A stretch of 60,769 nt of DNA, the filler included, from Hausera hauseri (taxonomy: Eukaryota), in the NCBI GenBank assembly GCA_046269625.1. It is 10 parts of 10 records of this genome, joined end to end, with 100 filler letters (N's around TTAATTAATTAA, not from the genome) between each part and the next. Parts side by side here need not be neighbours in the genome. Positions count along the whole stretch, not along the records: positions 42,511 to 47,613 come from JBJURY010334937.1; 9 more parts are not named here. One strand, given 5' to 3'. The notes under the pieces were generated by a model. The model had not been told where the DNA came from. It saw nothing but the letters and a program-made list of their open reading frames with translations, and searched no databases. Below, piece by piece: positions 7,970-57,615 of the stretch; within the stretch, counting starts at the first letter, position 1; the number at the start of each line of letters is the position of its first letter. Position numbers and translations under genes: made by a program.

Positions 7970-10270
7970 TTTTCAGTTGTCGTTTTTTGGTATTTTTTCG
8001 TTTTGCACGAACTCGATAATTTGCTGAATAACCGTGTCTTTAGCTTGTTCAGTTGTAATTCTAATTGTCTTATTCGATATTAGGATTCTTTGTCGTTCAA
8101 CTGGCTGTTCGAGTTGTAGTTTCTTTAGTGTGGTGATTGCACTCGTTTTTGTCTTTAACCTTGACAGTGCGTCGGCGTCGACGTGTTTATTACCAGTTTT
8201 GTATTGGAATTCAATGTTATATTGTGAGATTTCCTCGATCCAACGATTCAGTCTAAATGTTGGGTTAATAGCTCATCCTTTTAATGTCGTAACTGCTTTG
8301 TGGTCGGTTACTATTATAATCTTTTGTCCGTATACATAGACATTAAAATATCGTAGTGCTTCCTTTACGGCTAGCGTTTCTAATTCGGTAAGTGATTAAT
8401 TCTTTTCTGCTTTTTTAACGAGCGTCTATCATAGGCTATTGGATGTTCTAGTTCTTCCTCTTCTTGTTTCTGAGTTAGTTCGTATCCTATGCCTTCTTTA
8501 CTTGCATCTGTTTTAATGATGAATGGTAGATTAAAATCCTGATATCTTATGACTGGTCCGCTTGTCAAAATCGTCTTCATTTCATTGAATGCTTTTTGCT
8601 CCGCTTCTATCCATCTCCATTTAGTTCGTTTTTTGAGTTGACAATACACTGGTGCGTTAATTTTCGAATTGTCTGGTACGTAAGTGGCATAATACCCACA
8701 TAGGCCTAACCAATGCCTTAACTCTTTTTGGTTCTGCGGTTCCATACAATCGGATATTTTGTTTAGTAATGATTAATCTGGTTTAGATCCTCCTTCTTCG
8801 ACTATATGTCCGAGGTATAATACTGCGTTCTGTGCCCATTTACATTTCTTTAGATTTAGTTTTAATCCTGCTTGTTCCAATCGCATGAGTGTATCTTCAA
8901 TGTCCTTTAAGTGTTCTTCTTCTGTTTTTGATGCTGTCATCACGTCGTCTATGTAGGCGAATTCATGATCAAGTCCATAAATATTTTGTTCATCATTCGA
9001 ATAAAAATAGCTGGTCCTGTGGTGATGCCGAAAGGCATAACATTAAATTCGTATACGCCATCGTGTGTTTTGAACGCTGACTTATATCGATCCTCTTCTT
9101 CGATTTCCACTTGCCAGTATCCCGATTGTAAGTCGAGAGTGGTAAACAATTTCGCTCCAGATAGTCTATCTAATGCGTCTTTTACCGGTGATAATGAGAA
9201 CGAGTCCCTCATCATAAGCGTATTTAGCGCCCGATAATATATGCAAAATCGACGTTTCGTAGTTCCTTTCATTTTAACCATAAGTATAGGCGAGTACCAT
9301 GATCGATAGCTGGATCGAATTATGTCGGCCTTTAACATTCGCTCTACCTCCTTAGCTATTTCTGGTTTTAATGAATAAGAGGGTGGATACAATTTGGGCA
9401 TTTTTTGTTCTTCTAGATCGATTTCGTCATTTGAACTGGGTTTCTTCCTCAATGAAATTGTTAATCGTAGGGCCTTGACTCTACCGATGTATTCTTCATT
9501 TTGCGAGATTATCGATCAGTATTTACAGAGTAATTCATGAAATTTACAGTACGCCTCAGGAGAAAATTTGGTTTCAACGTGAGGTGGAAATTCTGCATAA
9601 TTGTATGGTTTTTCCTCTATCGTCACTGCCGATACTCTGCAAGTGTGACCCAAAATAGTGTTAACGTACAATCTTACGGGGATTGGTGCATTGTTGACTA
9701 GTCTTATAGGTATTCGTCCCGTTACTACGATACATAGAATATTGCTAAACGTAAGGTTGAGATCGATATTCCCTTGGGGCTCGAAGTATACTGGCAGATC
9801 CTCGTCCTGTCGAATATGTGCGAAAATTATCATTTCGGTTCTAGGCGGAATGTCTTCATCTACCGGAATCCATACTTCTCCCGATTTCCTTTCCTTTATT
9901 ACTTTTGTACCTTTTATTGGTTCAAGTTCACTTAATTTTCCGATATGCACATCAATCGCTATGCCTGGTATCTGCTTCAATATGTCACATCCTAGTACTA
10001 CATCGTCCGTTAATTGGTCCATTATCGCAAATTTGTGTTGAAGTGCTTGGTCCATCATATAGACAGTAGGAGTCCATTTAAATTTCGGCTTTGATACTTT
10101 TCCAAATGCTCCTACGCTACCTGGGTCTGATGATGCGGGTGGGCATAATTGGTCGCGTAATATAGTTGGTATTGATTCGTATTTCACAAATGACTTTTCC
10201 GATCCTGTGTCGATTAGGGCATATACTTCCCAATCTTCGATGTATATTTTAGCAAAGGGTCTTCCTTCTA
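7970..10270 (-). pseudogene. pol: aspartic protease, dUTPase-like spacer, reverse transcriptase, RNase H
   Basis: PFAKIYIEDWEVYALIDTGS (~10200-10260); WYSPILMVK, LDLQSGYWQV, YEFNVMPFG, AYIDD (~8945-8959); LRHWLGLCGYY, FIIKTDASKEGIG. Confidence 0.93.
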
Positions 10271-10916
10271 CTACCGTTCCAAAACAATTTGCTGCTATCT
10301 TCGACCGTTTTATAGTAGAGACTCTATGTCCGTTTATTGTGATTTCTGGCGATGAGATAATATCTTGCCTTAAATGTCTTAATTCTCCGTTCGGTTACAA
10401 GTCGTTAATTGTTATCTCAGTAACGCGACCGTCGATGAGCGGTTCCTGGGGTAGTGAACTCGAGATTGAACACAGTTTCGGGTTTTCCCAGATCGTTGAT
10501 TTTGATTCAATATAATGCGGTATCCTTTTTGAGTATAATATTCCGTGATCGTTTCCTATTAATCCTTGATTGGTGACATTCATTTTCCGTAGTATCCCAT
10601 ATTGTTTCGTCTTTTCATAAGGATCTTCATAGTCAATGGGTTTGCGGTAGATGTCGGACCTGTACGACACAACAGATTTTTGGTCACAGTCTTCATATAT
10701 TGGCGCAGTCGGTAACTGGCTGGGTATTGGTGTGTTTATCACCGAGTACATCCTATGTATCTTTATTCTGGAATTCCCTTCTCCTCCCTCAGGCTCGTCA
10801 TCGTCTGAATCATCCCTTCGTGTTATTGTTTTCTTGCTTTTACGTCTATACAGAATCGAGGGCCGCCTTCGTCGTTTGCGAGTATAATACCCAACGTGCC
10901 GTTCTTTGTCATTCTT

Positions 10917-12764
10917 TTAGCGATTTTCTTCATAGGACTTGAGCATTTTTCCGAAGGGCGTGATAATTTCAGTCAAAATTTTGCAGGAAAACCTTGTTAG
11001 TGTGAATATTTTGTAGGCGTTGATGATGGCTTGGATCACTTCTTTAATTAGCTGAACTAAAAAATAGATGGCTAAGAATCCCGATGCAGCTTGTCCAAAA
11101 ATTAGACATCTTCCCCAAATCTTATACAATATTTCTAAAGTTACTCCTTGATAGTGATTAGCACCAAGTAGCGATTCCCATTTTGCTTGGAAGCGGGTGT
11201 CATCCATAACCACTGACATGGACCGATTCAGTTTATAAGTTCTCTGTCGCGGAAATGCTAAGAATTGCCTAAAGGCTTCTATGTCCTTTGGCCTATAAAT
11301 TCCTTTATTGGCCGTGTCCTCGAACTTCTCTTCAGATAATCCTTTTATTAAATTTGTCCCAGTTAGTTTACTGGGAGTTTTAGCAGCGCCTGCATTTGGT
11401 AAACTTATCCAGTCGATTCCGATACGTCGAAACATAGGTTCGCCTAAGCTCGTTTTGCATGCTTTTAGTATTGTTGGTTCGGTTGAGTTTGCCAGTAATA
11501 CTCTGGTGAGTGGCATCGCTAGTCTCGGAATATTTTCATAGATGACCGGTAATTCTTGCATACATCTTTTCTCTTCTCCGTTAATCGGTACGTCTCTTTT
11601 CTCGCATTCGTAGGTTAATAGGACTTCCCCAGTAACTCGTCCGAAAACACTTTCTTTCATTGGTATAATTGATGATGCCACTTCTGGTTTGGCATAAATT
11701 AAGGCCAGTTTGGTTCTCATGACCTCAGTATCTAATCTGCAGTCATTTGTTATCATTTTATGATATAGCTCCGCTATTTCGGTTTGTCCTTTGTAATAAA
11801 CATAGTCGTCACGATTTTTGAGGTAATCTTCAATACGTATATCCTGCGTTTTCAAATCGTACGTTTTCATGTAAATATCGGTTTCCGCTAAAAAATGCTT
11901 CGTAGTTTGTGGAATACATAACTACATCGCAACATGTTAACATATCCTTTCTAATAAACTTCAATCCGTGTGCGTCCAATATCAATATCGTCGGTATGGG
12001 ATGTTCTATAACATCTTCCCGCAATCTAGTATTTGTGTGTAATTTATTTGTATAACGTTTTCCGGTTGTCTCATTAAACTTTAACTCTTTGATTTTGATG
12101 AAATTGCAATCTCTCTTAGAAGGTGGCTCCATACCTCGACTGAACTTCGAAATGTGCAAGCACCATCATGAATGTGACACTTTGGATTCTTGGTGAATAG
12201 TTTGGTAACACTATAAAACATTGCTTTCAATAATCTCAACTCGGTTTCGTAAAAATCTACGACTGATATTCCTCCTTCCTTTCCTTTTCCGGTGTCATAT
12301 TCTGCTCCAACACAATAACCGGTGTGCATATTTAGTTTTCCGACTGTCACTTTGTAGGCTGTAATGATTTTGACTTCTTGGGCTTCTAACTCCATGCCGT
12401 CCCAAACCATTTTGCCGGTTAGCTGGGCTCCTAAACAGTGTTGTCTATCCACGTTCATGGGGATTAATGGTGTGGTTGGTTTGATAACTGAAGAATGTCC
12501 ATGCATATTGCTACAATGAAAAACGCTGCGGGATCTCCGTATCATGCATTCGGACGCATCCATTGCGATTAATTCACGCTGTTGATATAATATATACCTT
12601 TTTTCTCTTCTTTCGAGCTTATGAGGTCTCACATCTTCGCATTTTTATTAGTTCATTAGAGAATATTTCTGACCCACCTTAAATTTATCACAGTCGTATA
12701 TGGTAACTGTCCCTAACTGCTTTACTAACATCATTATCGTCAGCAAGTTGATTAACAAACTGGA
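10917..12764 (-). pseudogene. Chuvirus (Jingchuvirales)-like envelope glycoprotein (env)
   Basis: Hydrophobic leader LLINLLTIMMLV, then YDC..YSL, CMIRRSRSVFHCSNMHGHSSV, GEVLLTYEC, CMQELPV, PLTRVL, PMF..W, GIY, and C-terminal TM WGRCLIFGQAASGFLAIYFLVQLIK. Broken into 3-4 ORFs. Confidence 0.82.
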
Positions 12765-15700
12765 TTCGTTTCCTTTATTCGGAGAGATATTTCGTATCAC
12801 GTCTTCTAAGTTATTAGTTCCTTTTATCTTGTCCTCTTTTTCAAATAATTTAGTCCATTTTATTTCTTTGGGTACCCTTTTCGCTGCTTTTCTAGCTAAC
12901 AGGATTGTCTTGACAAATTCATTTTCCCGGAGTGGGTTAGTTCTTACTGCTAAATATATCAAGACTTTCCTTAATTCTTCCATCGTATTGTCTGTCATAA
13001 TTCTGTCGATTACCATTTCGTCAGAGAAGGTACTTTTCGATAATTTAAATCGTGGAGTCTTCATTGTCCGGGCTATATTATATATTAACCTTTCCTTCTC
13101 GGATAATATGTCGCCTTGAAGTCCAGTGAAATTGACTATCCTAATTAAATCTTTTATTAGCTCAATTAGTTCTTCGTTATCTAAACTCGCGGTCGGTACT
13201 GATAGTTGTCTCAACTCCTTAATTAGGTCTGCATTATAATCAATTTCTTTTAATTTTCTCGGTCTTCCGACCGGTTGTTTCGGTTTCATCGGAGGTAAGG
13301 TTTCACTTAGAGGAACTAAATTTTTATCGTATTGCGGATTGCAGTTATCAGTCTGTAGATATTCGAAACACATTGCGGAGTCTTGAATCCCCATAATTTT
13401 TCCACATAATGCTCTGTATGTGCCTTTCTCATGGCTTCATTTTTGGTTTGCTCACTAACTATTATTGCTATTATTCGATTTTCTTCTAGCGGTATAATCC
13501 CTACGTCTACTAAGGATTCTGGCTCGTCTAATATCCTACTCCTGAAACAGAGTCGGTAATTGACCCCTTCTCTACCCTCCTTATCCATTATTCGTTGTTT
13601 TGTATCCGCAACGGTGGTGCAGGTAGTGCATGTAAATTCTTCATCGTCCATTCCTTCAGATGGTACCTTTACTTTAATCTCCGCTTCTGCTTTGTTTTTC
13701 AATATTTTAGAGTATTCTCTTATCAGAAGCTTGGGTACTGCGCTGTATGCGGTGTTTTCACTGAACAGCTTGGTCAAAGTTGAAACCAATTTCCTTAATC
13801 TATATTCATTTATGTTTATTTTCAACACACTGCTCAATTCCCTTTCGGCTATTGTGGAATCAAGTATCATTTGTACGTCAAATTGTGTTTTCTGGCTACC
13901 AATAGGTAACTCATAAATTTGTATTGTAGTTCTCTGACTCTGCTCAGTCAAACCTTGGAGATATTCATCCCACTCGGTATTATTATCTGCGTCAGGTAAC
14001 TCGTAGTTCACTAATGCCGCGTGTCCAACCGGGACTCTTTCGCGTAATTCTCTTAACTGTGGTTGAAAGGTTTTCATAATGGATACCCTAAATCCATCTC
14101 CATTTCCGCACGCTTGCTGTATCAAGGTTATTAATTGGCACATTTCTTCCGGTTGTATCAGAGCTTTTTCCTGATAATTGGTCACTTCCGCAATTTTGTC
14201 TCTGCCATTTTCGTGTAAACTCCGTTTTGTCATTAATTTAAGATTTCATAAGGGAATACTTCATCTTATAAACTTCTGTCTTTCTCAGTAATTCGTTTAA
14301 TTCGCGTTGTATTTTCTCGGAGCGTAACCTGGTTTCTTTTACCAGACGTATCCGATTTATTAGTTTTTCGCTACTACCTCGACAATTTCTGCCATCTCTG
14401 TCAATAATAGGAATAATTTGTGCGTTTCATTTTATACTTCGGCGTCCGGATCTACTGCATCCATTAGCCTGCTTATGAACTTAGCTTCAATGCTCGTCAA
14501 CTGAGGATCATTTGTAATTTTTGTTAGTTCAGTATGGCAATGTATGTCAAAGCCTGGTGTCCATTCTGCTGGATTCTGTAAACATTGTAGTGTTTGTGCC
14601 AGATCAATCCGGTGATCATTGCATATTTCTAATGTTTCTATTTCCTGTGCTGAGATTTCTTTCAATGGTTTCTGCATTAGGTTCTGGATCCCTTCTCAAC
14701 GAATGTTCGCTAATTCTCGCTGAAAATCATTTAGTTTGTTTCTTTTTCGGTAAAATTCCTTCTCTTCTACCATACTATATATCCCTGCCAGTGTTGTTTG
14801 CTCTTAATCCTTACTCATAAATTCAAGTCCTCGGAGTGATTTAAATTTAATTCGTAACTTCGCTTCATCTTTCATCGTACCGATATCTAGTAACATTTCC
14901 TCCAATTGGTGCCTCATTATAGGTTTACTCAGAGCGAATTCTGTTAATCGTTCGTTTGTTACTTCTGCTATGGAAGGTAACAAGTCTGCCCACTTCCTTA
15001 ATTGTTTAGATATTGATGGTGTCGCGTAGATTATTTCGTCTAATGTCCTCAAAGCTTTTTTAGTTCATGATCTGGCCCTCGTACAAATTCTATAATATGT
15101 TTCATGTAGTTGAACTCTTCTTTATACTCGTCTAATTTGAGAAGACAAGAAAGTGTTATTCTCTGTACTTCTAGCTTTTCAGAGTGAATTACACTAATCC
15201 TTAAGTCGTTGATTTTGGTTCGTATTTCATTTTCCCTTTTAATGCGTATTTCCAAATCTAGATATTGTCGAGGATTATCCTTTGTCAGGCTGCACATTGC
15301 TATTAAAGAGGGAATATCAATTGGGTCTATACCCAATATTTATAGGTCAGCATTAGTCAGTTCATATACTGGCTTGTTGTGAAGACAAGGATTTATCGTG
15401 TCTTCGATCTCATGTATCAATCCTTCTAAATTACGTCTTGGGCGTTTCAGTTTTGGGTTGCCTTTTAGCGCGTTTAACAGCCCTTGCGCTTAATTAACCT
15501 GATCGAAGAACGTCTCGTTTCTATTCCTTCATACTTTCGTAAAATCAATTCCTCTCTTCGTCCACCATTTTAATTTCTTCTGCCAACATTCTATCAAGTC
15601 TTGGGATGTTTCTTGGAGTTCGCCAGTTGTGGTTTCTTCCCCTTTCGGAAAGCCGATTTTAAGCTTTTTATACAGCTTCTCTATGAATTGTTGTTCTTTT

Positions 15701-37213: not shown

Positions 37214-39922
37214 TTTGCTGCGTAACCTTGGATAAATCTTCTGTAGTAGTTGCAGATCCCTAAGAAGCTTCTCAAATTCTTGACACATTTGGGTCTCTCA
37301 AAGGACTTAATTGCTTCTAGTTTTAATGGATCTGTCTGTATCCCTTTGTCGTTCACTATGTGTCCTAAAAATTTTACTTCTTTCTTGAGGACGTGGCATT
37401 TCTCTAGGTTTATTCTGAGACCTGCTTGCTGATCCTCTGCAATACATTTTCTAGTATCCTATAATGCTCTTCTAGAGTCTTAGAGAAGATTAGTATATCA
37501 TCTAGATATACCACTGTTTGTTCAATGTCCCCAAGTACTTTATTCATTAGTTTTTGGAAGGTGCCCGGGATTGCTGCTATACCAAATGGCATCCTGTTCA
37601 TACAGAACTGCCCTAATTTTGTTGAAAAGGCCGTCTTCAATTTGGAATCTTCTTCTAACTCGACTTGATAGTATGCATTCCCTAGGTCGATTGACGTGAA
37701 AAACTTGGTCCCGTATAGCCTGTTTAATATCTCTACCGCGTTAGGCATGGGGAAGACCTGTCGTTCTGTTATAAGATTCAGCTGTCTAAAGTCCAGACAT
37801 ATTCTGACATCATTCTTGTCTTTCTTCCGTGCACATATAATTGGTGTATTCCATGCTGAGTTACATGGCTTGATAATATCGTTTTTCCATAGATTTCGGA
37901 TGGTTTCGTCAATCTTTTTTTCTAGGTTTACTGGTTGCCTGTGAGGTTTGATATTGACCGGCGCTCCTGTCGTGTCTATTCGGTGTTTGATGAGGGATGT
38001 GCACCCTATGTCCCAGTTGTCGGCCATAAATACCTCTGGGTATTTTTGTATAATGTTGAGTAGATCTTTGTCGTCACTCACCTGAAGGGCTTCCTTCGGC
38101 CTGTTGACTCGTTCTTGGTTACTCACTTTACGGCCGAACTTAGCTTCCAGGTTGCATATATCTTGCTGTAATGTTCCCGTTTCCATGCGTTTCCATCCCA
38201 GTTCTATTCCGAATGCCTTTTGCAGGTCAACGACACCTATTATTTCTGGGCGTAATTCCGACACTACCAGAAATGTAACAAGTCTCCTTAGACCCTTGAT
38301 TTCTACGTATGTTGTAAGTGTGCTAAGGCAATCTAAGGGGCTATTGTTCGCGCATTGTAGTGTGGTATCTGATTTCTCTATGTGTGTGTTTGCAAGTTTA
38401 TCCACGATCTTTTCGCTTATGACGTTTACCATGGCTCCCGTGTCAATAAGCAATCTTCCCATCTGTCTTGTATCTTTAATTTGATTCCTGGTCGTCCATT
38501 AAACTTCCCGTATGATATCTGTTCGACATACAAATCGTCTAGCGTGAAGATCTGCGTATTGTTCCCACTTTCCTCTATTCCGTTGAAGGATACTTCCTGA
38601 AAATTTTCCGTTTTCATAAATTTCCGTACTTTTTCCTGTGTCCTTTTATCCATCGCTATACCTCCGTGTCCCCTTCTTCCTGATCCGTCTATATTGTTTG
38701 ATATACTACTACTATTATAAATAACGATATTTTGGGAGACTAAATCTATTGTAGTGCCCCGATTTGCTCCATTTCCATCGAGGCTCTGTATTTGGGGCAA
38801 CTGGCTCCTGATTGGATTCTGTTTCTTCCTCCTCTACGTTTGCAACTTCCTCCGTGTTCTGTACATATTATGCCCGGACCTTCTTTCTTCTTTGTATGTA
38901 TTTCATCCTGGATCTCTTCTCCCCTCCAGCCTGGTGTATCACTCCTTTTCGGTATGTCCCCTATGGTGACATCTTGCACAGCTAAGGTTAACACAATTTT
39001 GCCTGATGTGCCCTAGCTGACTACATCCATAGCAGCTTATTGGTTTTCTTTCGGGACACTGCCTGCATATGTGTCCTTCTTTTGCGCATCCAAAGCATTT
39101 AATCGATCTCTGTGTGGTGCACGTTCTGCTTGTATGTTCTTCATTCTGGCACGTCCAACACTTTAATCTACTATTTGGTGGTCTAGTAGGGGTCATGTTG
39201 ATTCTAGGAACGGGTTTCCTGATATTTTGTGTTGCCACTTCCTGGTAGCCTTTTCTACCGATCCCCGGATACTCCTTGACAGTGTTGACTTCTTCTGTAT
39301 TAATCTTCACCTCGTGTATCTTCCCTATTTTCTCCTTCATTGTTTCCGCGTCTCGTTTATCACTGAGGCATATTTCGCTTCTCATCTCTCTATTGTTACA
39401 ACATTGGAACAATAGTTCCTCTTTTAGAGCCTCGCGTGAAAGATTGTGTTTCATGATTTTATCGAGAAGTTTCTCGATTATCTCAATTTAAGCTTCCGGT
39501 TCCTCTCCATTCATTCTGTACTCGAGCGCTTCTTTTAGATCTTCGCATAGCGTTGAGGATCGGGCGAAAGATTTGCGTAGTCGGTTTTGGTATCCCATTA
39601 TCCTTGCATCTACTACTTCGTATCTTTCTAGTGCATCTTCCTGCAACGGGCATTCGACCATGATTTCCTCTTTCGCCGCCGGAGTGTTCATATATTTAAA
39701 GAATTTTTCACAGTCTTTAATGAACTTCTCTACGTCGTCGCCTTTCCTGAATTTGTTGGGAAACAACTGGTTCGAGAAAATGTTTATTGTGGCGTAAGTC
39801 GACATGTTGGCAGCGTGCACATCCACGCAATCCACCTCGTCGCCCAGCTTGGGTAGGGTTGGAAAATACCCGCCCTCTGGTATGTCTGTTGAGTCATAAT
39901 TGGATCGTTTGAAATTACTCAT
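37214..39922 (-). mobile_element. Decayed Ty3/Gypsy element (gag with multiple CCHC knuckles, PR, RT)
   Basis: CWTC..HTSRTC, CFGC..HICRQC, CYGC..HIRQNC; LIDTGA; IDLGNAYYQV; VYLDDILI; LRSFLGICNYYRRF. Possible tRNA-Ser-like PBS at ~39831-39846. Confidence 0.9.
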
Positions 39923-40060
39923 TGAAAAGTAAACATCAATTGTAGAAAAATTTTATTGTAATCAAAGATACTTATTTGGAAACAAAAATTCTAAATTCAA
40001 ATTATACTTTTAATTGTAGGGGGATTGGAGGACACCAGGCCAATATAAATATCCTATCTT

Positions 40061-40353: not shown

Positions 40354-42410
40354 TTACACTTTTGTACAATAATGTCCATATGCGACACTTTTTTTCGATA
40401 TCCAGTGTCGTTTGTCGTCGAATGGATCTAGCGCTTTCTTTTTTATACTGATCGTCATCAGTTGATGGTTTTTGGTGCCAATCCGTTCTTGATCGACAAT
40501 TGTCCCACATCCATTCTCATACGCTTGCAAGTAGTTATCAAAGTGCAAATCGGTTTGTTTCAGATTGATACCCTTGCATTTGAGCACTGGTTTGGTTTGG
40601 GTTTTGAGGGCATACGATTTTGGTCTTAGGAAAATGGCTTCTTCGTATTTTGCACTACCCTTACTTTCATCCTTAAATTTTTTAATTACCGAAGCGAAAC
40701 GGGTAGAATAAAGAGGGTCTGTAGTGTCATAGTTAGAAGTGTCCAACTGCTCATTTACTATCATTGCCGGTAAGAGCTGAGATCGCAGACCTACACTACG
40801 ACACTCAAGAAAGAAACTATCAGTATCACCAGCAACAATATTAAGTTCACAATTGAACTGATGTCTGTATGATTCTAACCCTATGTATTTCAATTCATAC
40901 ATTCTCAACTTGGAAAGATCAAGTACAGCCTGGCCGATGTATGATGGTCTGTCTAATATCACAATGTCTTTGTCAAGGAGAACAGCAACAAAATCATAGT
41001 CAATTATAATACTCTCTTTAAACTGGGCATTACTAGCATATGTCACAAAATTTTTAGCATTGTTACATAGTCTCAAGTTGGACCATTTTAAGAGGTTTTC
41101 GACTGTCTTACCATATAATCTATTGTTCTTGAGCTTAAAGAAGTCTTTTTCAAAAGGATTTTTCGCTGCAGCCCTCTTAGCAGTGTTTAGATCAATGTAA
41201 TCCTTAAAGACATAGCCTTTTGTCAAACTCAACAGCCCGATGAACCTTTTCAACTATAAGGCCTAAATCTATGTACAATTGTAAGAGGCAATAATGAACC
41301 ACATAGTTTGACTTCCGCTCATGAGTAAGAAGCAATTTCTTAACTTTTGAACCTGGTGGACATTGGTTCATTTTGGTTAGAGGCAGTTTGTCAAACTTAT
41401 CATGTTTGTCTGCTGGAATGCTTAAGTCAACTTCAAAGACCAAACCTCGTTTTTCTTTAACACAGTCAATGTAAGGTAATTGTTGGATCAGACTAGCCAA
41501 GACGTCCTCATCATAAATCCAAGTCAGATTCGCAAATGGCAAAAGTTGAGATAAAGCCCAGCCATATAAGTTATTTACATCTATATACAAAGGACTGGTG
41601 CTTTCATCTGTTACAGTCCTATGCTTATTTACAAAAGTAATGCCACTGCGAATACTTGACTAAAAGAAGTGATGCATCTCAGGATCCTGGATAAGCTCGA
41701 TCTTGCAAGGACTGGTTTCCAATGCTATGGCCCAACGTAAACCTGTAATTGAGACAAAGTTAGCAGCCTCTAAACCATCTTGCAACTTAACCTCCTTTCT
41801 GAATCTTTCAAAGACATCATACAACAATTAGACGTCAAGCTTTATATATATCAACATATAATCTAACAGACAGTTGCAACTGTATTTGGACCAAACCAAT
41901 TATGATTCTTCGTAATCACTGTCGCTAACATCATTCCATTTTGCTGGTAAGTCGTTAATTGACTGCAATTCACTAAAAGATTTGGCTGCAGTATATGGGA
42001 AAATCCCTTTTTCCTTAATTATGTCAGAAGGGAAGGCTGACTAAGTCAATGGGTAGTTATCTAAGTTTGAAGCTAAAGTCTTAAGTGAAGCTGGCAAAAA
42101 TTGCAATGAGTCGAGAAATCGAATAAACACAGACTTTTTACCAGAACATTGTATATTTGCCCTCATGGTTAGAAATTTCTTTGTCGTTTGTGGAATCACA
42201 CTCAAGTCCCAATTTTTGAATTTACTTACTGCATGTTTTAAGATATGATGGAGATCATAGCCACACAAATTATGGAAAATTACAGGTAAATTATATCTAA
42301 TATTACGAGCCAAGTTACACTTGTTGCATGCAGGGCCTAAGAATTTATCTGAAACATGACAGTGATCTCTAACAAATTGAAAACTGGTTTCATGACAAAG
42401 GTAACATTCT
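40354..42410 (-). pseudogene. Protein-primed family B DNA polymerase, diverged subfamily, 5'-truncated
   Basis: VIFHNL.GYD, FLDSLQF, YIDVNNLYGWAL, KLKNNRLYGKT, AGDTDSFF, LRPKSY, FDDKR. Confidence 0.92.
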
Positions 42411-42852
42411 NNNNNNNNNNNNNNNNNNNNNNNNNNNNNNNNNNNNNNNNNNNNTTAATTAATTAANNNNNNNNNNNNNNNNNNNNNNNNNNNNNNNNNN
42501 NNNNNNNNNNTACATTTTCAAATTAAAGTTTTAATTTAAATTTAAAAATGTTTCTAATTTAAATTTAGAATTTCTGTTCTCAATTATATCCTCACAATGC
42601 TCTTGCGGCAATTTCTATGTTTCTCTCTATCTCTTCTTGATTCGGGTTTACACCCTTCATTACCATTATTTTGTATAAAAGATAAGATATAGCTGTTACA
42701 ATTTTACGTCGAGATATACCGGTTCCCATCATTCTCGACAAAATATCTTTTTCTTGGATTTCATTTATCCTCTCGTTCGTGGGGATTTCTGCAAATTGTT
42801 CACTAATCTTTGCAATTTCATTCCTTATAGCTTGCATTAGTGAATCCGGTAT

Positions 42853-43407
42853 TTAGAGATTAGTATTAAACTCAACGAATGCATTATGCATTCTTGCTAG
42901 CAAGGAATGTAGTAATTTTGCCAATGATACATTATCTGCACCATATTCATCTTCTGTTGTTAGAAATCTTCGAAAGACTTCGTCATCTCTAGCTTTTCTA
43001 CCTTTCAACTGATAAAGTTTCGTCGTTCCTTTTGGTCTGCCACGGTTTTTTTTATCTGTTTGCATTTGTTCTGATATAGGCATATTCACTCCCGTTTCTA
43101 TTTTTTGAGCTTCATGCTGATGTTCAGTTTTCTGTATCTCTTTTCGCCTAACATCAGTGACAATTTCGTCAATTATTTCTTGTTCAGACTGTTTATAAGT
43201 AATACACACAGGATTGTATCGATTTTCCCAGATACCTACTTCATACAAGGTTTCGTATTCCAGCAGAGTGCGTCCATAGAAACGCAACTCTATTTTTCCT
43301 CGAGGCTGGATAATCCCATTGATATTATTTTTCAATGTCATTATCTTATCCAACGACTTCATTCTTAGAACATGAAAATCTTGGTTGTACTGTTGCAGCG
43401 TAACCAT
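42853..43407 (-). CDS. Accessory ORF fragment with ubiquitin-like domain (43195-43410) and AT-hook (43030-43044)
   Basis: DKIMTLKNNI..IELRFYGRTLLEYETLYEVGI; NRGRPKG. Confidence 0.7.
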   Translation of the reverse strand: MVTLQQYNQDFHVLRMKSLDKIMTLKNNINGIIQPRGKIELRFYGRTLLEYETLYEVGIWENRYNPVCITYKQSEQEIIDEIVTDVRRKEIQKTEHQHEAQKIETGVNMPISEQMQTDKKNRGRPKGTTKLYQLKGRKARDDEVFRRFLTTEDEYGADNVSLAKLLHSLLARMHNAFVEFNTNL

Positions 43408-44033
43408 TACTTCAGGGTCTTCTCCTAGTGTCCTTACTCTACCCGCATATCGATAAATTATATACCGTACGATGTTCTAGTATGTGCTTGTACGCGCAGA
43501 ATATATTAGCAGTAAATCCAGTAAATTAGCAAATTGTTGATGGCTAAATGTTGGCAATAGTAGCATAGACAGATCTTGTCTAAACCGAGTGCCATCGATT
43601 AGTTCTTGGTTAACATAGCTAGATATTTTCCAAACTATTTCTACGCCATCCTGATTTAAATTTACAGATGAAGACTCATAACTTGGGGATTTTTCTTTTA
43701 TTTTCTTTTTTCTGATCCTTTTTATCTTTTCTTTGGGTTCACTTTCTCCACTTGACTCACTTTTTTCACTTCCACTTCCAGAAGGTAAGTTAAGTTCCAG
43801 AGTCTTTAGTTCTTCTTTTTGTATCAAAGGTTTATCCTTCTTCTTAACCCTTTTTTCTCAGTATCCGATTCTCATACGGGAGTTTTTTTGGGTCTACCAA
43901 TAGGAGAAATAACTGAACTTTTATCATTTATTTTTTGTCTTTTCTCACAGGTTTGTTGCTCCTTTAATTCCAGGTATAGCTGTTTTAATTTGGTTAACTT
44001 ATCTTTCTCCTCTGTCGTATTGGTTTTACTTTC

Positions 44034-45050
44034 TTATAATTTAAATCTGATCTTCTGTTGTAACTTTTCAGTTGTTTCCTCGGGCTCTGTATCCGTAGTT
44101 TCGTGCTCATTATTCGTATCAGATATATTGCCTACGATGTCGACATTCTTTTTCTTTTGACTTGACTGTCCTTGATTAGGGCAAGTACGAGCCATATGTC
44201 CGTATTTTTGACATGCAAAACATAATGGCTGTCCGTTCTGGTTAACCGTTGGTTTTCTCATCGCAGATTTTTGAGGTTGGTCTTGTTGCCACGTAACCTT
44301 TTTTGTTGTTGCCCCGTTTGATTCTGAATTTTATAAAACGGTTTTTGAAAATTTTTCTTTGACTGAAGGCTTTTCATCTTTTTATCATCAATTTTTTGAG
44401 GCTTTTTGGTACTTTTTAATCTTTTACAGTACTGCTCAATTTTTCTAGCCTTACTGACAGCTTTCTTATATGTGTCAGGGTCAGCAACAATAATATAATT
44501 TTGTATTTCCTTAGTAACTCCATAACAAAATTGAGCCAGAAGAGCGTCTTCTCTTATATCATCATCTGCGTAGGCTCTCTGACCCAATTTCTGAATGGCA
44601 CATGCATATTCCTGCACACTTTCACCTTTTCTCTGACGTCACCTGTAAAACTCTCAAATTCGACATTTTCCTGATGGGTCTACTAAAAGTCTTTCTTTCA
44701 GGGAGTCCTTAAGGCCAGCTCAATCAGCTTTGTCATCATTCGTAAGCTGAGCGTAAGCAGTAAGTGCTATTCCTTTAAGATGCAAGGGAAAACGTTGTAT
44801 CCTAAGCTCATCTGACCAAGCAAAAACTCACTATAATCTTGGTCCGGTTTTCCTTTAAACTTATTCATCGGAAGGACCATTGTACTAGTCGTACTTGAGC
44901 CAGTTTCTATTCCAGAGCTAGACACTGGGTTTCTTTCTATATTTGTGTTTGGTTCAGCCAAGGGGTTTTCGTCTGATTCAGAACTACTCCTTGCTGAATC
45001 AGTACGTGAAGTTGTGGTGCTAGCGTTAATTCTACTTCGAGTGTTATACG
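44034..45050 (-). pseudogene. gag with CCHC zinc knuckle
   Basis: KFKGKPDQDY, major-homology-like region, CX2CX4HX4C. Confidence 0.85.
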
Positions 45051-45060
45051 CGAGTGTGAT

Positions 45061-45078
45061 TCCTTACTCGGGGCACCA
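45061..45078 (-). promoter_or_regulatory. Primer-binding site TGGTGCCCCGAGTAAGGA (elongator tRNA-Met-like)
   Basis: Lies 1 nt after the LTR end ...TATCA; resembles the complement of the tRNA-Met(e) 3' end ..CGGGGCACCA. Confidence 0.8.
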
Positions 45079-45079
45079 G

Positions 45080-45734
45080 TGATAAGTTTAGAGGTTAAGA
45101 TTTATTTCTGTTATTACGACCTTAAACTTATACACTTTACTTAATACTAGATAAAATATGGGGTTTTTCCTTTTCCCTAGACTAAGAATTAATTATTCTT
45201 ATAAGCAACCTGTGGGGTTGCCTTAGACTTTTATTAGACCTTAATGTGAGTACCGTTCAGGAGGGACACTGACGGTTTACCCCTTACTTAGAAGAATTTA
45301 CACATCCGGCAATTTACAGGGCCGGAATACCAAAACGGGGAATATTTTAAGGTTAATTATACCTTAGTATCAAATATTACTTAAAGTTATTTCAAACAAA
45401 GTTACTCTAAAAATATATATTAATCTAATAAAATAAAAGAACAAATAATACAGAAATTAAAAGCAAGAATCAAAAATCTTACACGTGTTGTAGTATAACA
45501 TAACGTAGAACCAAAATGAATAATCAGATTACGTCAAATTGTTAATGTTAAAATGACTGAACATGCGAGTATATATACTAAATTGATGTTGACACATTTG
45601 AAGGCGAAAATTTACATTCAATTAAAATGAATAAAAAAAATAAAAGTCAATTCAATTCATGACAAAAAAAACAAAAACCAATTTAAATTTTCACGAATGT
45701 TTATTTTGTAGATCGATTGAACAATCACTGTACA
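45080..45734 (-). repeat. LTR (655 bp, TG...CA), bounded by a PPT and a PBS
   Basis: Starts TGTACAG right after the PPT and ends TATCA right before the PBS. Confidence 0.85.
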
Positions 45735-45748
45735 TCTTCTCCCTCCTT
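45735..45748 (-). promoter_or_regulatory. Polypurine tract AAGGAGGGAGAAGA
   Basis: Pure purine run abutting the LTR TG. Confidence 0.85.
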
Positions 45749-45915
45749 AGATGAAGCTGTCCTCAGCTTCAAGGGATAGGTTTTGAGGATACCATTGGAA
45801 TATTTGTAATTGGCGGAGTCTATCCGCAACCATTGATTTCCCTTTCGAATCTTCTTTTTGAGGGTAACTGTTTTTCGAGTAATTCTCTTCTTTTATAAGC
45901 GTTTTGTTAAATCGA

Positions 45916-46656
45916 CTAGAATAGATTATTAAAATCAGTGGCAGAGAGCGGTTGATTGATAGTTGATTGGTTAAAGATAGGTGTTCCAGAGGTAACAGGT
46001 GTTTTAGAGGTCTCACCAATGTCCATCGATTCGCATTTGGAATTATTTGTCAAAGCCATCATCAAAAATTGTTCATTATGGAGTAAGATTTCGTTTACGG
46101 TTGATGTTGATTGGTCTGATTGAGATTGATTGGGTAGTTTTTGGAGATTTCCTTTTTCGATTTTATATTCGTTGATAGAGTTATAAATCTTCAGTATTGT
46201 TGCAGCTTTCTCCATGGTACGTAGAGTGTACACAATATTGTTAAATTTCATTAGGACTTGCTTATGGATCAATGTTTTCTCTGAATTTATTTCTGGATGA
46301 TATAATAGATCCTTAATTCCTAGTATTGCATTGGTATCAAAAAGGTCGAGGTGTAGGTTTGTGTTATAAATATCAATTCGAACTATCATCTTCCCATTAA
46401 GCTCTTTTCTAATAAGGGATCTAATTTGATAGGCATCTGTCCGTCCGGTTAAATCTATTTCTTTCAATCCGGTAATCAAGCTGTTATAATTGTCAATTCG
46501 GTCACGCGGAGTAACAAGTTTGTCCAAAATAATATTGCCTTCAAGATCCGTAATGGTTAATTCTACAAGGGTTGCCTCCTTATTGCGTAATGAGGTTAGG
46601 AGGAAGGCAAAATTCGTTGCTAGTATAACTATCTGATTTTTTGATCTTAGCGGCAA
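45916..46656 (-). CDS. 3' accessory ORF fragment with a REX4/ISG20-like DEDDh exonuclease fold (probably catalytically altered)
   Basis: LVELTITDLEGNIILDKLVTPRDRIDNYNSLITGL...LNGKMIV; the ExoI DxE motif is not evident (ILATNF). Confidence 0.65.
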   Translation of the reverse strand: MPLRSKNQIVILATNFAFLLTSLRNKEATLVELTITDLEGNIILDKLVTPRDRIDNYNSLITGLKEIDLTGRTDAYQIRSLIRKELNGKMIVRIDIYNTNLHLDLFDTNAILGIKDLLYHPEINSEKTLIHKQVLMKFNNIVYTLRTMEKAATILKIYNSINEYKIEKGNLQKLPNQSQSDQSTSTVNEILLHNEQFLMMALTNNSKCESMDIGETSKTPVTSGTPIFNQSTINQPLSATDFNNLF

Positions 46657-47793
46657 TCTGAAAAAGGATGTTCCGGCTGTGAGCTGATCACCATTGGATA
46701 AATTTGGGGGATTATCGTCTTTTCACACTTGATCTGAGGGAAGGTTTCTCTTCGCGTGACTTCAATGTATATTATCCGAGATGGGCCTCCACAAGTTCGT
46801 AGAATGATTGTCACATTTCGATAAAACTTCTTATCCAAGCGAATCGTAGTATAATCTATGACATCCAAAGTGTCGGTAAAATCATTTAGATGTGCTCGAC
46901 TTTTTACTTGAAGATTGCCTTTTGCTGCAGATATAAAGACTGACATAGTTCGACTGGAAATGCCGATTAAACCTGACAATTTTGTAGAAGCGTTAGGTAG
47001 CTTCATAATCAGTCCGGCTCTTTGATGGAGGAGATGACCTTTTAATTGTTTGGTATGTGATTTGCTTTACCGTAATAGACATAATCTTTATTGTCTGTTT
47101 GATTCAGATTGCTGTAATAAAAAGATTTAGTTCTGTCCACAACTTCAAATCCTTCTTGAACTAAAAAGAAATAAACACATGTTAACCAAGAAGATTTGAG
47201 AAAAGGAATACGAATNNNNNNNNNNACTCTTATTCAGTTTATAATTTTTGTAAGTCGCGAGAAATTTAGTATATTGGTTCTGTATCTTTGTACAGTAATA
47301 CACAGTTACATCTCTTGCTCGACAATCTTGTCGTTTACTTGTTCGATTTTTACTACTGAGAGGAGTTAATGGACAATCTTGCTATTCAGGATTAGTCGGC
47401 TTCTTAGCCGATGGTTTCTTTCTTGACGGACAATTTTGCCGTTTAGAGGTTTGTAGAATTTCATTATTAGGCGCATTTATATTCCCTGTTAACTCACCTT
47501 GTGAGTCTTTTCTTAAAAGTCTTAATTGATTTAACATTTCTCTTATTCTACGTTGCCGCCGTTTTATTTTTGACCAATAGATCGTTAAAGGCAACACTAT
47601 GGCTAGTAATATTNNNNNNNNNNNNNNNNNNNNNNNNNNNNNNNNNNNNNNNNNNNNTTAATTAATTAANNNNNNNNNNNNNNNNNNNNNNNNNNNNNNN
47701 NNNNNNNNNNNNNACGTGGCGAAGCTAGGTAATGAAGCCGCTACCACCGTTATTATATGTACAGAAACCATCTGAAGATGAGATAGAACAAAA

Positions 47794-49662
47794 TGGCTAA
47801 TCTTACAGATTAGTCCCAGATGGCCGAAATACTCGGATACTAGCCGTAAACTATAGAGAAAAGAATGTGGGATTGTATTTCCCGATCGAGGTGTCCATCA
47901 GGAATACTAATGGAGATGATATTATGAATAAAATAATCGCACCTTGGGCTAGGATAAAAGATACCTTCGCCGACGTTACTGGAATCACCAAGCCGCAGCT
48001 TGAAAAGGGAAAAGATTTTTTGGAGGTCTAAGAAGATATAAGCCATTGCTTATATGGATATATTGTTACAGGATTTTGAGTACACGAAGCGTTGGAGCGA
48101 CTAGGAATTAGGCAGGAATATATAGCCGGAATTCGAGAAGTGAACCGTAACCCAGCAGTCGTGTGTCAAGTTGATACTTCGATGCGGAAAAGAGGTTTCC
48201 TACTTCCGTCAGCATCTCGCGAATCACAATTCAGACTGATGCTAGAAGCCATGTATGGCGAACGATTCAAATTCCCTAAGCTGACGACAGCAAATCAAAG
48301 GACCAAATTTATAAAAGATATCTATGACTCGTTACGATGAGACCACGAGTGAAAAACCAAAATTCATATGCAAAACGCAATATCCGACAATAACCCCAAA
48401 ATCCTGATACAAAAATTCCAAAAACGGTTTAGCGAATATCCTAGTTATCGACAAATCAAACCACGAGGACATAACCGATTTCGAGTAACAATCCATAACA
48501 GCCCAATAGAAGTCCGGAACAACCAACAGAAACCATCAACCAGTAAAGCCCAAGGAGTGACAATAAAAGACGATAATTTAGAGAAACCGAAGAGGCAAAA
48601 GCAAAGACCTCCTTTTTGGATTAAATCAATAAAAAGAGAAGCAAGACCAGCAAAGGCCCTGTGACAGATAATCTAATCCCGGAAGAACCCATGAACGATC
48701 AGAAAGAAATACCAAATCGCGAGAAAAGGAAAGAAAATGGAGAAAAACAGTTGGAAATTACTAAATCTAAATCACTTAAGACGGAGGTCAACGTTCTTCG
48801 GAAAAACTGGCAAGAGGATACCCCGATCATAGTTACAGAATTCGGCCAGGTGAAAGAATATAAAATAATCTTTGTTATGGCCGAGTACTATAGCAAAGGA
48901 AAAATTATAGAGGCCATATTTTACGTGTCCACTGTTTTTAGAAGGATAGTCAGTGGAAATGGATATGACAAAGTAGATACTACGATCGGCAGATATCTAG
49001 CCCCGATATTTCAGTCGAAAAGTAGTACTAATAGATTGACAATTCCAGTGGATACCCAAGTTAGAGTTAAATTAAAAAGGCAATACAAAAAGACTGGAAT
49101 ACCCGATCTGGACAGGCAAAAGGTAGTAGAATAAACCCTAGTCTCGGTTTCAGATGATCCAAAGAAAAGCTCAATAGACCCCAAACAAAAACGATTATAC
49201 GGATACTTATACCAAGATAAAAAGTGACTGGTATTCGAGAGAATAGAAGTAGATGAAAACCTTGTAGACATAGAGGCAGCGGAGAAAGATGAATGTCCCG
49301 TATGCGACGCGGATCTCTACCAAGGATATGTAATATTGGACAACAAAGATTGCAGTTATAAATATTGCCGATACTGTTTGGAAACGTGGACCCTGAAAAA
49401 TGGAAAAACTACCTGCCCAGTATGCAGAGCCGAAGCTACAAGGCCAAGATACTACTCGAATGGAGAGAACAAGAAAATAGTAGAGATATTGCCCAAACAG
49501 GCCACTACGTCCTATCATATTGACTTGCAATCACCGTCAAACAAAACGGATTCGGAAGAGGACTTACGTGGACGAATGGACAGATTACGCAGAGTACGCG
49601 GCACCTCTACTGACGCAATGGGCACATCCGAGAGTGCCGTTCAGGGAGGAGAAATGTTATGA
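47794..49662 (+). pseudogene. Retroelement 3' accessory ORF (decayed) ending in a RING finger (49294-49425)
   Basis: 48661-49662 is one frame with two stops; CPVC-x16-CSY-KYCRYC-..W..-CPVCR; 5' extent approximate. Confidence 0.72.
49643..49654 (+). promoter_or_regulatory. Polypurine tract AGGGAGGAGAAA
   Basis: Purine run immediately before TGTTA. Confidence 0.8.
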
Positions 49663-53220: not shown

Positions 53221-53570
53221 TAATAATAATGATTAGACATTAACCAAATATCAAACAAAAATCACGAATTGATTGATATTGCATATATCCTTTGAAAAGC
53301 GAAAACTATTTATTTACCAAATTAAAATTGACAATCAACTTGGCATTGGAGTATCTAAACAACTGTCTTAATATATACAGATCGCCTATTGGGTGAATGT
53401 GGGCACCACAGTCGGACCCTACTATCGATCCCACGCGGTCATAGCAGACGCTCGGCCGTGCCCGAACAAAATGGACCAAAGGGCACCTGCCGCCATGGGC
53501 ACCACTACTGCGCTCTGTGATATTCTTCTTCTGTGATACCGGGCCATTGCGGTGATAATCCCTCTGTCGT

Positions 53571-55250
53571 CTAAAGCCGGTCGTGCGATATTGCAAAGTC
53601 ATACGAGAATATACCTTTGCTACGAGCAATATGTGTGGGGAACTGAGTCAATGTTAGCGGCAGATTTGGCAAGGCATTTACCATCTTTGCCAGAGATTCA
53701 TTGACAAATTGCAATGAATCAAGGAAGCGTGCCTGGAACCGGTTAATACGAGCAGACAGTGTCAGGTATTTCTCCATCGTAGTCGGAATTATGGATAGTT
53801 CCTTGTGTGGAAATCCGTTTATGGCCGATTTTAAAATATGGTGACAATCAACCCCGGAAGTTATGAAAAATCACCGGCAGGAATGGCAGCACAAACCTTG
53901 CCAAATTGCATGGATTGCATGCTGCTCCGAGATATCGTCCGATAAAATGGACGTAATTCGATACGAGCCGTTCTAATGCATAAAACGGTAATATTTCGTG
54001 GCTCAGGCAACATTCATCTGTGACTGCAAACGTCAGGCATTCACTTTATCTATCCACATCAAAAGTTTATTGCTATTTCTACTGTACAAGGATGCGATTT
54101 TTTTCTTTACTATAATTTCCAACTGCTGCAGAAAATTACGTACACAGTTCCAACCATGGAAAACGTAATACTACGGTTATCCGGCGATTTTTGTTGGTAC
54201 TAGCAACATACCCACAGCAGTTGGAATGTGCTTTTGATAGTATACATTGTGTCGTGGTAGAACGGCTTCAATATCGGCATACATCACATATACCGGGCTG
54301 TCCGTTTTTGATCAGTCACTGAATTTCAAACTTCTTTTTGACTGGCATAACATACATTGTGGTTCCTGAAGAAGTTTGCCTGTACAGAGATACGTGCTTT
54401 TCCCATCCCTCATTTGACCGGAATCCATGCAGACACACGGGACACCATTTGCAGCTTATACGCTTTTTGATGAACTGGTCATGGTCCATGTTCAACGATC
54501 TGTCCAAATTGGTCACGGCCGTGTAGTGAAACTTTTTATCGTTCTCCAATAGCAACAAATTTACTAGGTGTCCAACTGGATTTCGACTGCGGTAAATTAT
54601 GTCCTAGGTAAATTATGTCCTACACCGGTACCTCTACAATTGTGTTGAACCGGAACACGTAGACTGCCAGTGTCGGATTACGCCGTTCAAAAGCCGGAAT
54701 GGTTTTGAGTTTTATCGGCATCTAACACTCGTCGTAGTCTAATTCTGAGAAATACTTACTGTACTGTTTTGGACAATTTGCATGATGTCTGGACACTTGA
54801 TCATATTTCACTATGACCAGAATGCTGTAAATAAAGCAATATTCTTCGTTAGTGTTTTGTACATTCACTACCACCAGAGACTGCATTAAGGATACAGGTG
54901 TCGGTATGAATGAACGTCTGGACAGGTAAATCATGTCACTCGTCTTGGTCAGAATAAAGCCGAGAGTGACAATCTTTACAATTCGCGAACCACTGTCCTT
55001 TTCGGTGTAGTTGGCGAATTTTTCGTCAAGATTTTGGCCTAGATAGGCAATAAAATCCTCAGAATATGGTACGGCTTAATGTGACAGGTACCATTGTTTC
55101 CTGTCACCCCGCAGATTTTCAAATTCTGCAAGTGCATAATATAGCACTTTGCAGTGGTGTTGTTGAAATTTTGCCATCTCTGATTTCAACCAGTTACGCA
55201 CATTAGCAGGTACATCCTTCAATTGTGTTGCTGTTTTCGCCGACAGGTCA
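53571..55250 (-). pseudogene. pPolB N-terminal half, close paralog of 28801-30500; polymerase domain deleted
   Basis: NMDHDQFIKK..CKWCPVCLHGFRS, FLDSLQF, KGIFSYDF. Confidence 0.9.
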
Positions 55251-56806
55251 CCTTTATGTCCACGTACGATCTGTTCAGGTCGTACGTGACAGTAATGGGA
55301 GGTTTACGTTCCTGCTGCTGATGCTGACTTCTGTTGTTTTGAAAGTGTTCCTTAAGGCTTGCTAATTCTTGACGTTTCTTGCTGCTGCTTCTTACTGCGT
55401 CCATTAATATTTCCTTTTTCGATCTCTGAAACTAATTTAAGTTGTCTTTGTGGTTGATGTAGAATTGTTTACAGTTGACTTGTGTCTCAACTATATAACA
55501 ACCGGTGCATACATAGGCCCGTTTACTACATCTTTTGTTGTTGTTGTTGTTGTTACATTTCAGTATAAATACTTGTGCTTTTTTACGGTATGACATTACT
55601 ACATGTCCCATCTAACAGAACTCATTCGTTTATATCACTCGTTTGAAGGTCTCCGGAGTCACCTTTACAATCTTGATCAACCTTTACATGATGCACGATA
55701 CTTTTCTCCCGAAGCGATACTCCGGCGTGCTGATGAGAATTGGAGGGTACGAGAACCTTATTAACGACATATGAAGCAGCTTGTTGGTGTCATTGATATG
55801 ATATTCGATCAGTTGTTTCGAACCTATCGGAAATTGGCGTTATTACTATGCGGTGGATGGCAATCCATGTCAAATACGGTTTGTGGAAGAGTTTGTCAAA
55901 GGTGATTACATTCCAATGTGGCAGTCAGCAAATCGGATTTGTTTCAAGCAACATTGCAATGTAACTAATTCCGATGGACTCGTTCTTTCTCCTGCTGAAT
56001 TGATTAATGCGTGTGGTTTGTGTGGTGTTGATGGTGGTGCTCCAATTTTATCAATATTGGAGAATCTGGTTTAGTTGTACTACATAAATAGAAAAAAGTT
56101 TGATATGGACTTGATTGAGCTTCCGTAAGTCAAACAACATGAACATTATGCAAATAAAGATGTAGTCATTTGACCAATTTAATTGACAACAAAACAAAAA
56201 TGATCATGGGTAAAGTTACATAAAAGCAGATAATAATCAGTAATTCTACAACACACACAGAGAGGAAGGGTCGATTGTTTTGATGCGACAGAATATTTAA
56301 ATACAATTATCGATCGTTAATGTCTATTTAGAGACTTTGAGGATTACTCTATGTGCACTATGTACGAAAGTGTATTGATTTTCTATTTGGTTTTACTTTA
56401 AAAAGACCATTGTTTCTGGCCATTGATCGATATACAAATAACTTTAATCTATCTGTGAAGTACATATATATTACATTGTGTGCCATACATCTTATCATTG
56501 TCCGACCATTCAATTCGTCGATTAACTTAAGTGTTTGTGTGTGTCCGTGTGCTAGCAATCTGTCACGTTATGTTTCATTTCTTCATTGTCAACACACACA
56601 CACACTTCATCGCTGAGCGAATAAATCTTGAGACAATAATGTGACAATCAGTCTCCTTGTGAATAATAGCAGTAGTAGTACTCAATTAGGAGCTCGTCGT
56701 CGTCGTNNNNNNNNNNNNNNNNNNNNNNNNNNNNNNNNNNNNNNNNNNNNTTAATTAATTAANNNNNNNNNNNNNNNNNNNNNNNNNNNNNNNNNNNNNN
56801 NNNNNN

Positions 56807-57081
56807 CAATATAATTTTTCATCGTCCCTTAAGGACGATTTGCACTACACTAAGGGTAAAATCTTACTTAAATTCTGTAGCTAGGTTGAGAGAATCTAAC
56901 TTAAGACACGCAGTTTTATTGCACGCAGTACCGGAATCAAAAATTAATTTCTTTTTTATAAACCTTAAGGCACAATCAGATTATTCGAGAACGAGTAATC
57001 CTAACCTACTCATAGAGCGAATCTAAATTGGAATTAATATTGTTATAGTGGGAGAATGTAAGGGCCACCCTAACTATAACA
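56807..57081 (+). repeat. 3' part of an LTR with no PBS following
   Basis: Ends TGTTATAGTGGGAGA..TAAGGGCCACCCTAACTATAACA, nearly the same as the 17940 LTR end. Confidence 0.75.
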
Positions 57082-57083
57082 AC

Positions 57084-57596: not shown

Positions 57597-57598
57597 TT

Positions 57599-57615
57599 TG
57601 GCGACCCTAGCAGGA
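57599..57615 (+). promoter_or_regulatory. Primer-binding site TGGCGACCCTAGCAGGA
   Basis: Identical to 17921-17937. Confidence 0.88.

Follow-up and report, generated by a model that had tools for sequence, protein, structure and literature searches.

The closest described relatives of the locus analysed here are the Burro elements of planarians, which, in the portion of PMC6431247 consulted, combine Gag, a Ubi2/SUMO-like domain, a BCL2-like domain, an in-frame Env and a protease. The IAP region of Burro1 is said, in a second-hand account in the consulted part of PMC13465017, to protect stem cells from apoptosis. Elements with the gene order GAG-ENV-POL and a gB-type Env are reported in the sections used of PMC13524379 for Nematoda, Bryozoa and Platyhelminthes.

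The stretch of DNA analysed here (the window; 60,769 nucleotides from Hausera hauseri, assembly GCA_046269625.1) consists of ten contigs joined by N's, and is made up for the most part of decayed mobile elements. The element of interest, referred to below as the 43-kb element, lies on the minus strand of positions 42511-47613 (JBJURY010334937.1), and the stretch in question is decayed Gag-to-Env cargo from a GAG-ENV-POL Ty3/gypsy element. A second lineage, the 13-kb element, is present elsewhere in the window, and the features of both are collected in Table 1.

Other contents of the window include three related contigs (28750-30560, 53508-55297 and 40354-41659) that by eye carry protein-primed DNA polymerase B genes of Polinton/adintovirus-like type, with a DNA_pol_B_2 match (E 1e-4) at 40357-41253. 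Another gypsy element, distinct from the two above, occupies 37410-39952 (minus strand); it shows three CCHC matches, a protease and an RT, with no Env in between. A RING finger ORF at 49228-49662 (plus strand; E 1e-7) is possibly the accessory cargo of another element, and host-like gene pieces at 404-2480 (plus) and 24869-26908 (minus) give HSA, SNF2, Ints3-like, amylase and ABC transporter matches.

A dead copy and its unbroken relative

The copy in the window is dead, as it carries stops, frameshifts and an inserted repeat. A single minus-strand frame spans 43857 to 42595. Two in-frame stops (read as X) interrupt it, one at 43477-43479, inside the domain that precedes the ubiquitin-like (Ubl) domain, and the other at 42853-42855. 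Both were overlooked in the original prediction.

The candidate 5' LTR begins with TG after a purine tract (45748-45735) and ends with CA at 45081-45080; the adjoining PBS is one that we take to belong to an elongator tRNA-Met-like primer. Because the purine tract precedes it, an upstream copy likely uses this same LTR at its 3' end. An ORF at 45916-46722 (minus strand) resembles ISG20-type 3'-5' exonucleases (PDB E 0.004 and 0.01). A purine tract and then the LTR (from 45734) come after it, which makes it a likely 3' accessory gene of that upstream copy, the two copies sharing the LTR in tandem. One LTR candidate and one PBS were seen on 42511-47613, and the contig does not contain the element's 3' LTR. 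The extent of gag was set by tblastn with residues 5-191 of the relative P0003, described below, plus the knuckle region. Its Pfam matches are Ty3_capsid (E 1e-4) and zf-CCHC (E 3e-5), the capsid and CCHC of a GAG-ENV-POL errantivirus Gag, and an Arc capsid match was obtained at E 0.007.

At the other end, the frame runs into a distinct and far more abundant repeat. Summed contig depth in the public run X1, which is not equivalent to copy number, steps from 2,371-32,462 across 42601-42760 to 122,462-565,382 across 42529-42600. Contigs with loose ends at 42596 number 124 in X1 and 7 in a second public run, X2, the majority loose end being purine-rich on the element strand. The repeat starts with TG, and we infer that it is the inserted LTR of another family; a role as the element's own 3' LTR was rejected, as it is unlike the element's LTR (score reached by 153 of 500 shuffles). 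Through the insertion the contig lost BH2, Env and the hydrophobic stretch between them, and gained the stop codon at 42592-42594, where P0003 reads on in frame. Position 42592, given in the original prediction as the end of the feature, thus sits within the inserted repeat and was rejected as a natural ORF end.

A homologue search with the protein of the window copy came back empty, and locus scans of viral and metagenome contigs gave no relative. A search of 1.84 billion protein representatives returned two matches, P0003 and P0004. P0003, a single sequence from a contig of 4786 bases, is 1130 residues long, 74% identical to the query and encoded in one unbroken frame; used as a query itself, it returned only itself and no shorter homologue. 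Its order is capsid, CCHC (residue 197), a small helical domain, Ubl (473-522), RGRPK (585), a second helical domain (612-760), a hydrophobic stretch (~784-802, with a modest hydropathy peak of 1.77) and, just after it, a gB-type Env (Monjiviricetes_fusion 793-980, E 6e-19). Identity to the window copy is 87% (71/82) in the Bcl-2 part, 74% (53/72) in the Ubl and 69% (44/64) in the pre-Ubl domain. In 42595-42760, third codon positions account for 8 of the 11 majority differences listed (p 0.009). Of the 8 near-fixed ORF differences among the 40 of 1050 rows shown, only 2 are so placed, as expected for decay of the window copy.

A second copy of the 43-kb family is found on contig 1, with 76% DNA identity to 43724-44035 (the gag tail). 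Here, P0003 residue 389 abuts residue 878 at ~5172 (residues 280-389 followed by 878-941), showing that the cargo has been deleted. Pfam matches to Monjiviricetes_fusion (E 1e-8) and then to RVP protease (E 0.002) are present, and beyond the protease the text looks RT-like by eye, yet gives no tblastn match, and the contig stops short of integrase. On the question raised in the original prediction, whether env and PR follow the cassette, Env does follow in frame in P0003, and the contig 1 copy, with its cargo deleted, has Env plus protease.

Table 1. Positions of the element features discussed in the text, counted along the window.
Feature	Position	Strand	Basis or remark
Outer end of a distinct, far more abundant repeat (likely LTR)	42511..42596	-	Depth step; loose-ended contigs
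Likely Bcl-2-like helical domain, cut short of BH2	42597..42939	-	Via P0003 counterpart; in-frame stop 42853-42855
Basic segment with RGRPK AT-hook-like motif (43044-43030)	42976..43074	-	Conservation against P0003
Integral Ubl, no C-terminal di-glycine	43200..43413	-	Pfam, protein search, PDB profile, P0004 HMM
~65-aa domain, family unassigned, helical by eye	43419..43611	-	Directly before Ubl; homologous to 13700-13900
gag: capsid and single CCHC knuckle, disrupted by stops and frameshifts	44181..44922	-	Pfam; tblastn with P0003
PBS	45061..45078	-	Elongator tRNA-Met-like (assumed)
Candidate 5' LTR (TG...CA)	45080..45734	-	Boundaries inferred from end signals
Second copy of 43-kb family, contig 1	4782..6881	+	Gag tail, mid-Env, protease
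13-kb element: gB-type Env, protease, RT, GAG-ENV-POL order	8952..12698	-	Pfam
13-kb element: GRPRK (13268), helical region, hydrophobic stretch before Env	12699..13280	-	Motif scan, hydropathy
13-kb element: homologous helical domain and Ubl	13451..13900	-	Pfam ubiquitin, E 8.5e-4; alignment tests

The ubiquitin-like domain, its neighbours and the second lineage

A Ubl-like segment was predicted after the gag CCHC knuckle, and is present. Ubiquitin is the sole Pfam match of the window Ubl, at an E-value (0.051) too weak to pass the cutoff, and the match is backed by P0004, a polyubiquitin-like protein of six Ubl repeats (E 2e-10 in the search above), and by a three-row Ubl profile that found Ubl domains in 12 of 14 PDB match rows (best E 0.026). 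The 13-kb element has the stronger Pfam match (Table 1). An HMM of the P0004 repeats, applied to 3465 six-frame windows, ranked the 43-kb Ubl at the top, a result that is circular, and the 13-kb Ubl next (E 0.11). Each of these lines is weak and all are concordant, and by sequence the domain matches the ubiquitin fold.

The original prediction went further, and proposed engagement of the ubiquitin pathway. The C-terminal di-glycine of a conjugatable modifier is missing from the Ubl of the window copy, of P0003 and of the 13-kb element, and the position of ubiquitin Ile44 is occupied by Arg or His in the 43-kb lineage and by Cys in the 13-kb element. The lack of the di-glycine and, in the 43-kb lineage, of a hydrophobic residue at the Ile44 position argues against classic use of that pathway.

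The domain directly before the Ubl has no credible Pfam match. Together with the Ubl it forms a module of ~130 residues that aligns almost without gaps over 127 columns between the two lineages, a score reached by none of 2000 shuffles (z 6.6-9.3), and the pre-Ubl domain by itself is likewise beyond all 2000 shuffles (z 4.0); the module boundaries were fixed post hoc, by inspection, and shuffle scores of this sort can be inflated by helical periodicity. The pre-Ubl and Ubl windows are also reciprocal best non-self matches among 929 real-frame windows, with scores of 108, 92 and 91 versus 68, 59 and 69 for the best unrelated windows. To judge from these alignments, the part truly shared by the two lineages reaches upstream of the Ubl, beyond the feature as first delimited.

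The motif RGRPK, said to lie about 50 residues past the Ubl, is real, whereas the spacing is not: in the 43857-42595 frame it follows the quoted Ubl motif by 62 residues. Its segment shares 30 of 33 residues (91%) with P0003, versus 39% and 56% for two linkers, and the AT-hook core RGRP with basic flanks is present in both copies. GRP[RK] arises in 0.4% of 20,000 ORF shuffles, and four of the five six-frame matches to it in the window fall in the 43-kb and 13-kb elements, two in each. The second match of each element is after or near the knuckle, at 43898 (minus) in the 43-kb element, where it is kept in P0003 (residue 307), and at 16636 (minus) in the 13-kb element. The 13-kb motif GRPRK (13268) is without the first Arg and without the flanks. 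A Pfam search for AT_hook with both 27-aa pieces returned no family at E 10.

For the helices after the motif, a loose likeness to 12850-13050 had been reported, of which no local or profile test found any trace: BLASTP gave E 6.4, local scores were reached by 196 and 1057 of 2000 shuffles, the helices were not reciprocal best among the 929 windows, and the profile-profile comparison that had been suggested as a check returned an hhalign probability of 0.2%. Pairwise BLASTP of the whole cassette between lineages gave nothing significant. A single global alignment, with GRP and YDC as anchors, gave a score that 15 of 2000 shuffles reached, and the helices may be remotely homologous. The 13-kb helical region has no Bcl-2 match by Pfam, HMM or hhalign. 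Thus, the view that the same cassette recurs in a second lineage holds for a Ubl followed by GRP[RK] in the same place, and is not supported for the helices beyond it.

The 13-kb cassette is divided between two reading frames. Between its Gag and the helical-Ubl module there are ~700 extra residues (14249-16000, minus strand), with no Pfam match for two pieces in 14249-15600, and a relative of its 5' end and gag, at 72-76% DNA identity, is found at 56807-60769 (plus strand). PBS and gag had both been described as different between the two lineages. The PBS candidates do differ; the gags are distant yet homologous (25% identity, E 8e-9). It is conceivable, as a tentative suggestion, that planarian GAG-ENV-POL elements ancestrally had the helical-plus-Ubl module as their core cargo, that the Bcl-2-like domain, anchored by the Env signal, doubles as the missing matrix, and that in the 13-kb lineage this domain has either been replaced or diverged past recognition.

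The likely Bcl-2-like domain

For the helical domain that follows RGRPK, no Bcl-2 signal comes from the window copy by itself (HMM 1.0 bits), and the assignment is made through its counterpart in P0003. Bcl-2 leads the Pfam matches of the isolated P0003 domain, at E 0.0029 and with positions 5-100 of the 100 in the profile covered; the score of 18.5 bits is below the Pfam gathering cutoff of 31.4. With full-length P0003 the Bcl-2 match (E 0.055) does not outrank a spurious one to PDH_C (E 0.025); the weak Pfam matches to ASFV_360, PDH_C, HAUS6_N and divDNAB were dismissed as chance.

A reference set was assembled from 127 loci fetched by a BH1/BH2 motif, from which 33 long and diverse frames were chosen by eye, all 33 matching Pfam Bcl-2. 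Locus L001:341-898 of the viral collection, a Bcl-2 protein that by eye is close to vertebrate Bcl-2, was excluded. When an alignment of the two copies was compared by hhalign with these 33 natural Bcl-2 proteins, the match was rated at 61% (E 8e-5), and the 65 aligned columns hold BH1 to BH2 in register. With the Bcl-2 HMM the P0003 domain scored 15.1 bits, more than any of 500 shuffles or any of 455 decoys from the window, in a test that is partly circular because the reference was chosen by a motif containing BH2. Removal of BH2 lowers the score to 0.8 bits, reached by 185 of the 500 shuffles, such that the signal hangs on BH2.

BH2 itself (W-x4-GGW) is at P0003 residue 741 with canonical spacing, and is missing from the window copy through the insertion. 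The NWGR of BH1 is aligned in register with its Trp and Gly lost, and a basic residue is kept at the BH1 arginine position of the P0003 domain. Loss of the BH1 Gly may spoil BH3 binding. No Bcl-2 came up at E 10 when the helical domain was searched against PDB sequences. AlphaFold models of it, built from shallow alignments, are of low confidence (pLDDT 37.6 and 33.1), too low for the empty Foldseek result at E 0.001 with the second of them to carry weight. Nevertheless, the segment after RGRPK in the 43-kb lineage quite probably has a Bcl-2 fold, a judgement to which the report of the same domain at this position in Burro contributes.

Interpretation and comparison with known systems

The reading to which we incline, if only somewhat, is that the element is a compact Burro relative, the intact form of which would set the likely Bcl-2-like domain on host membranes, helping the producing cell to survive. 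The hydrophobic stretch (P0003 ~784-802) would act as an internal signal that sends Env into the ER lumen, leaving the N-terminal part tail-anchored. Such an arrangement would let the Env signal double as the anchor of the Bcl-2-like domain, and would tie Gag to Env-bearing membranes. The Bcl-2-like domain might bind or decoy helices of the host Bcl-2 family, the Ubl, which could not be conjugated, might serve for docking or as a spacer, and RGRPK could bind nucleic acid or aid nuclear import.

Some viral Bcl-2-fold proteins bind other host signalling proteins. A rather unlikely alternative is a Bcl-2 fold with no anti-apoptotic role, serving as a membrane-proximal, matrix-like scaffold that links Gag to Env-bearing membranes, or as a binder of host signalling proteins. 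The degenerate BH1, the position of the domain directly before the hydrophobic stretch, and the helical region of similar length but no Bcl-2 signal in the same place of the 13-kb lineage would all fit a scaffold. A canonically spaced BH2 and the basic residue at the BH1 arginine position are less easily accounted for in this way, as are the several apoptosis-related domains mentioned for Burro relatives in the consulted portion of PMC6431247.

The original prediction saw instead a clade-defining Ubl, AT-hook and helical module for chromatin tethering and ubiquitin-pathway engagement, which we regard as improbable. RGRPK does fall in the best-conserved segment, GRP[RK] does occur twice in each element, and the Ubl is homologous between lineages. 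However, no homology of the post-hook helices is detectable across lineages, the 13-kb motif is reduced, Pfam finds no AT_hook, the Ubl has no di-glycine, and the module is in Gag-Env, distant from integrase and adjoining a likely membrane anchor. Least probable is that the helical domain has no relationship to Bcl-2 and that W-x4-GGW arose by chance, as the dependence of the whole signal on BH2, the poor AlphaFold models and the PDH_C comparison might suggest, since the profile is covered almost in full, BH1 and BH2 are in register, and an independent BCL2-like call has been made at the matching Burro position (PMC6431247, in the portion consulted).

Returning to the inclination towards a Burro-like element, P0003 has the Burro-type order of a Ubi/SUMO-like domain, a BCL2-like domain (by a match scoring below the cutoff) and an in-frame Env. 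In the part of PMC6431247 consulted, Burro/GYPSM1 likewise has an N-terminal Gag with CCHC, then Ubi2/SUMO-like and BCL2-like domains, and an in-frame Env between gag and pol, and its cargo is tied to apoptosis and ubiquitination, as is the cargo here by domain type. Compared with the Burro figures given there, P0003 is far more compact, with Env from ~residue 810 versus a Burro ORF1 of 4,873-5,140 residues, has one knuckle versus two to three, and, unlike the giant Burro ORF, has no MATH, BIR, ankyrin, RING or SMC match. The element is thus classed as a likely relative, in compact form, of the planarian Burro elements rather than as Burro itself.

Smed_errantivirus_1-6, with an Env of HSV/gB type and a cysteine pattern of type C1a, have the same gene order and a Monjiviricetes-type fusion protein (PMC13524379, in the sections used). 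In the eLife Env table in those sections, Schmidtea rows are the only ones to contain three short motifs of the P0003 Env, with 3, 4 and 4 occurrences (PMC13524379), and from these Env motifs alone a planarian host is judged likely. The likeness to the Smed errantiviruses is one of gene order and short motifs; their Gag-Env cargo goes undescribed in the sections used, where the terms 'ubiquitin' and 'AT-hook' are absent (PMC13524379).

At the level of single domains, the Ubl has the same fold sequence pattern as integral (type II) Ubls, such as those of ubiquilin and RAD23, and as SUMO-like domains. The helical domain shares with cellular and viral members of the Bcl-2 family (PF00452) the helix pattern by eye, the BH2 W-x4-GGW, the BH1 position and a trailing hydrophobic stretch, and differs from them in a BH1 without Trp-Gly, a BH3-to-BH1 span that by eye is shorter, and its place in a Gag-Env polyprotein.

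Neither the pre-Ubl domain nor the RGRPK segment is mentioned for Burro in the portion of PMC6431247 consulted, and no published description of either was found in the literature searched, though figures and supplements of further papers may show them. The cargo layout being already published for Burro, the gain is incremental; the small new points are the pre-Ubl domain common to both lineages and the basic segment with its high conservation. Should the Bcl-2-like domain prove to block cell death, these elements would have another anti-apoptotic device besides the IAP region reported for Burro1. Compared with a polyprotein of 5,000 residues, the compact element isolates the minimal Burro cargo, namely the Ubl, the basic motif and the likely Bcl-2-like domain, in a form that is far easier to work with.
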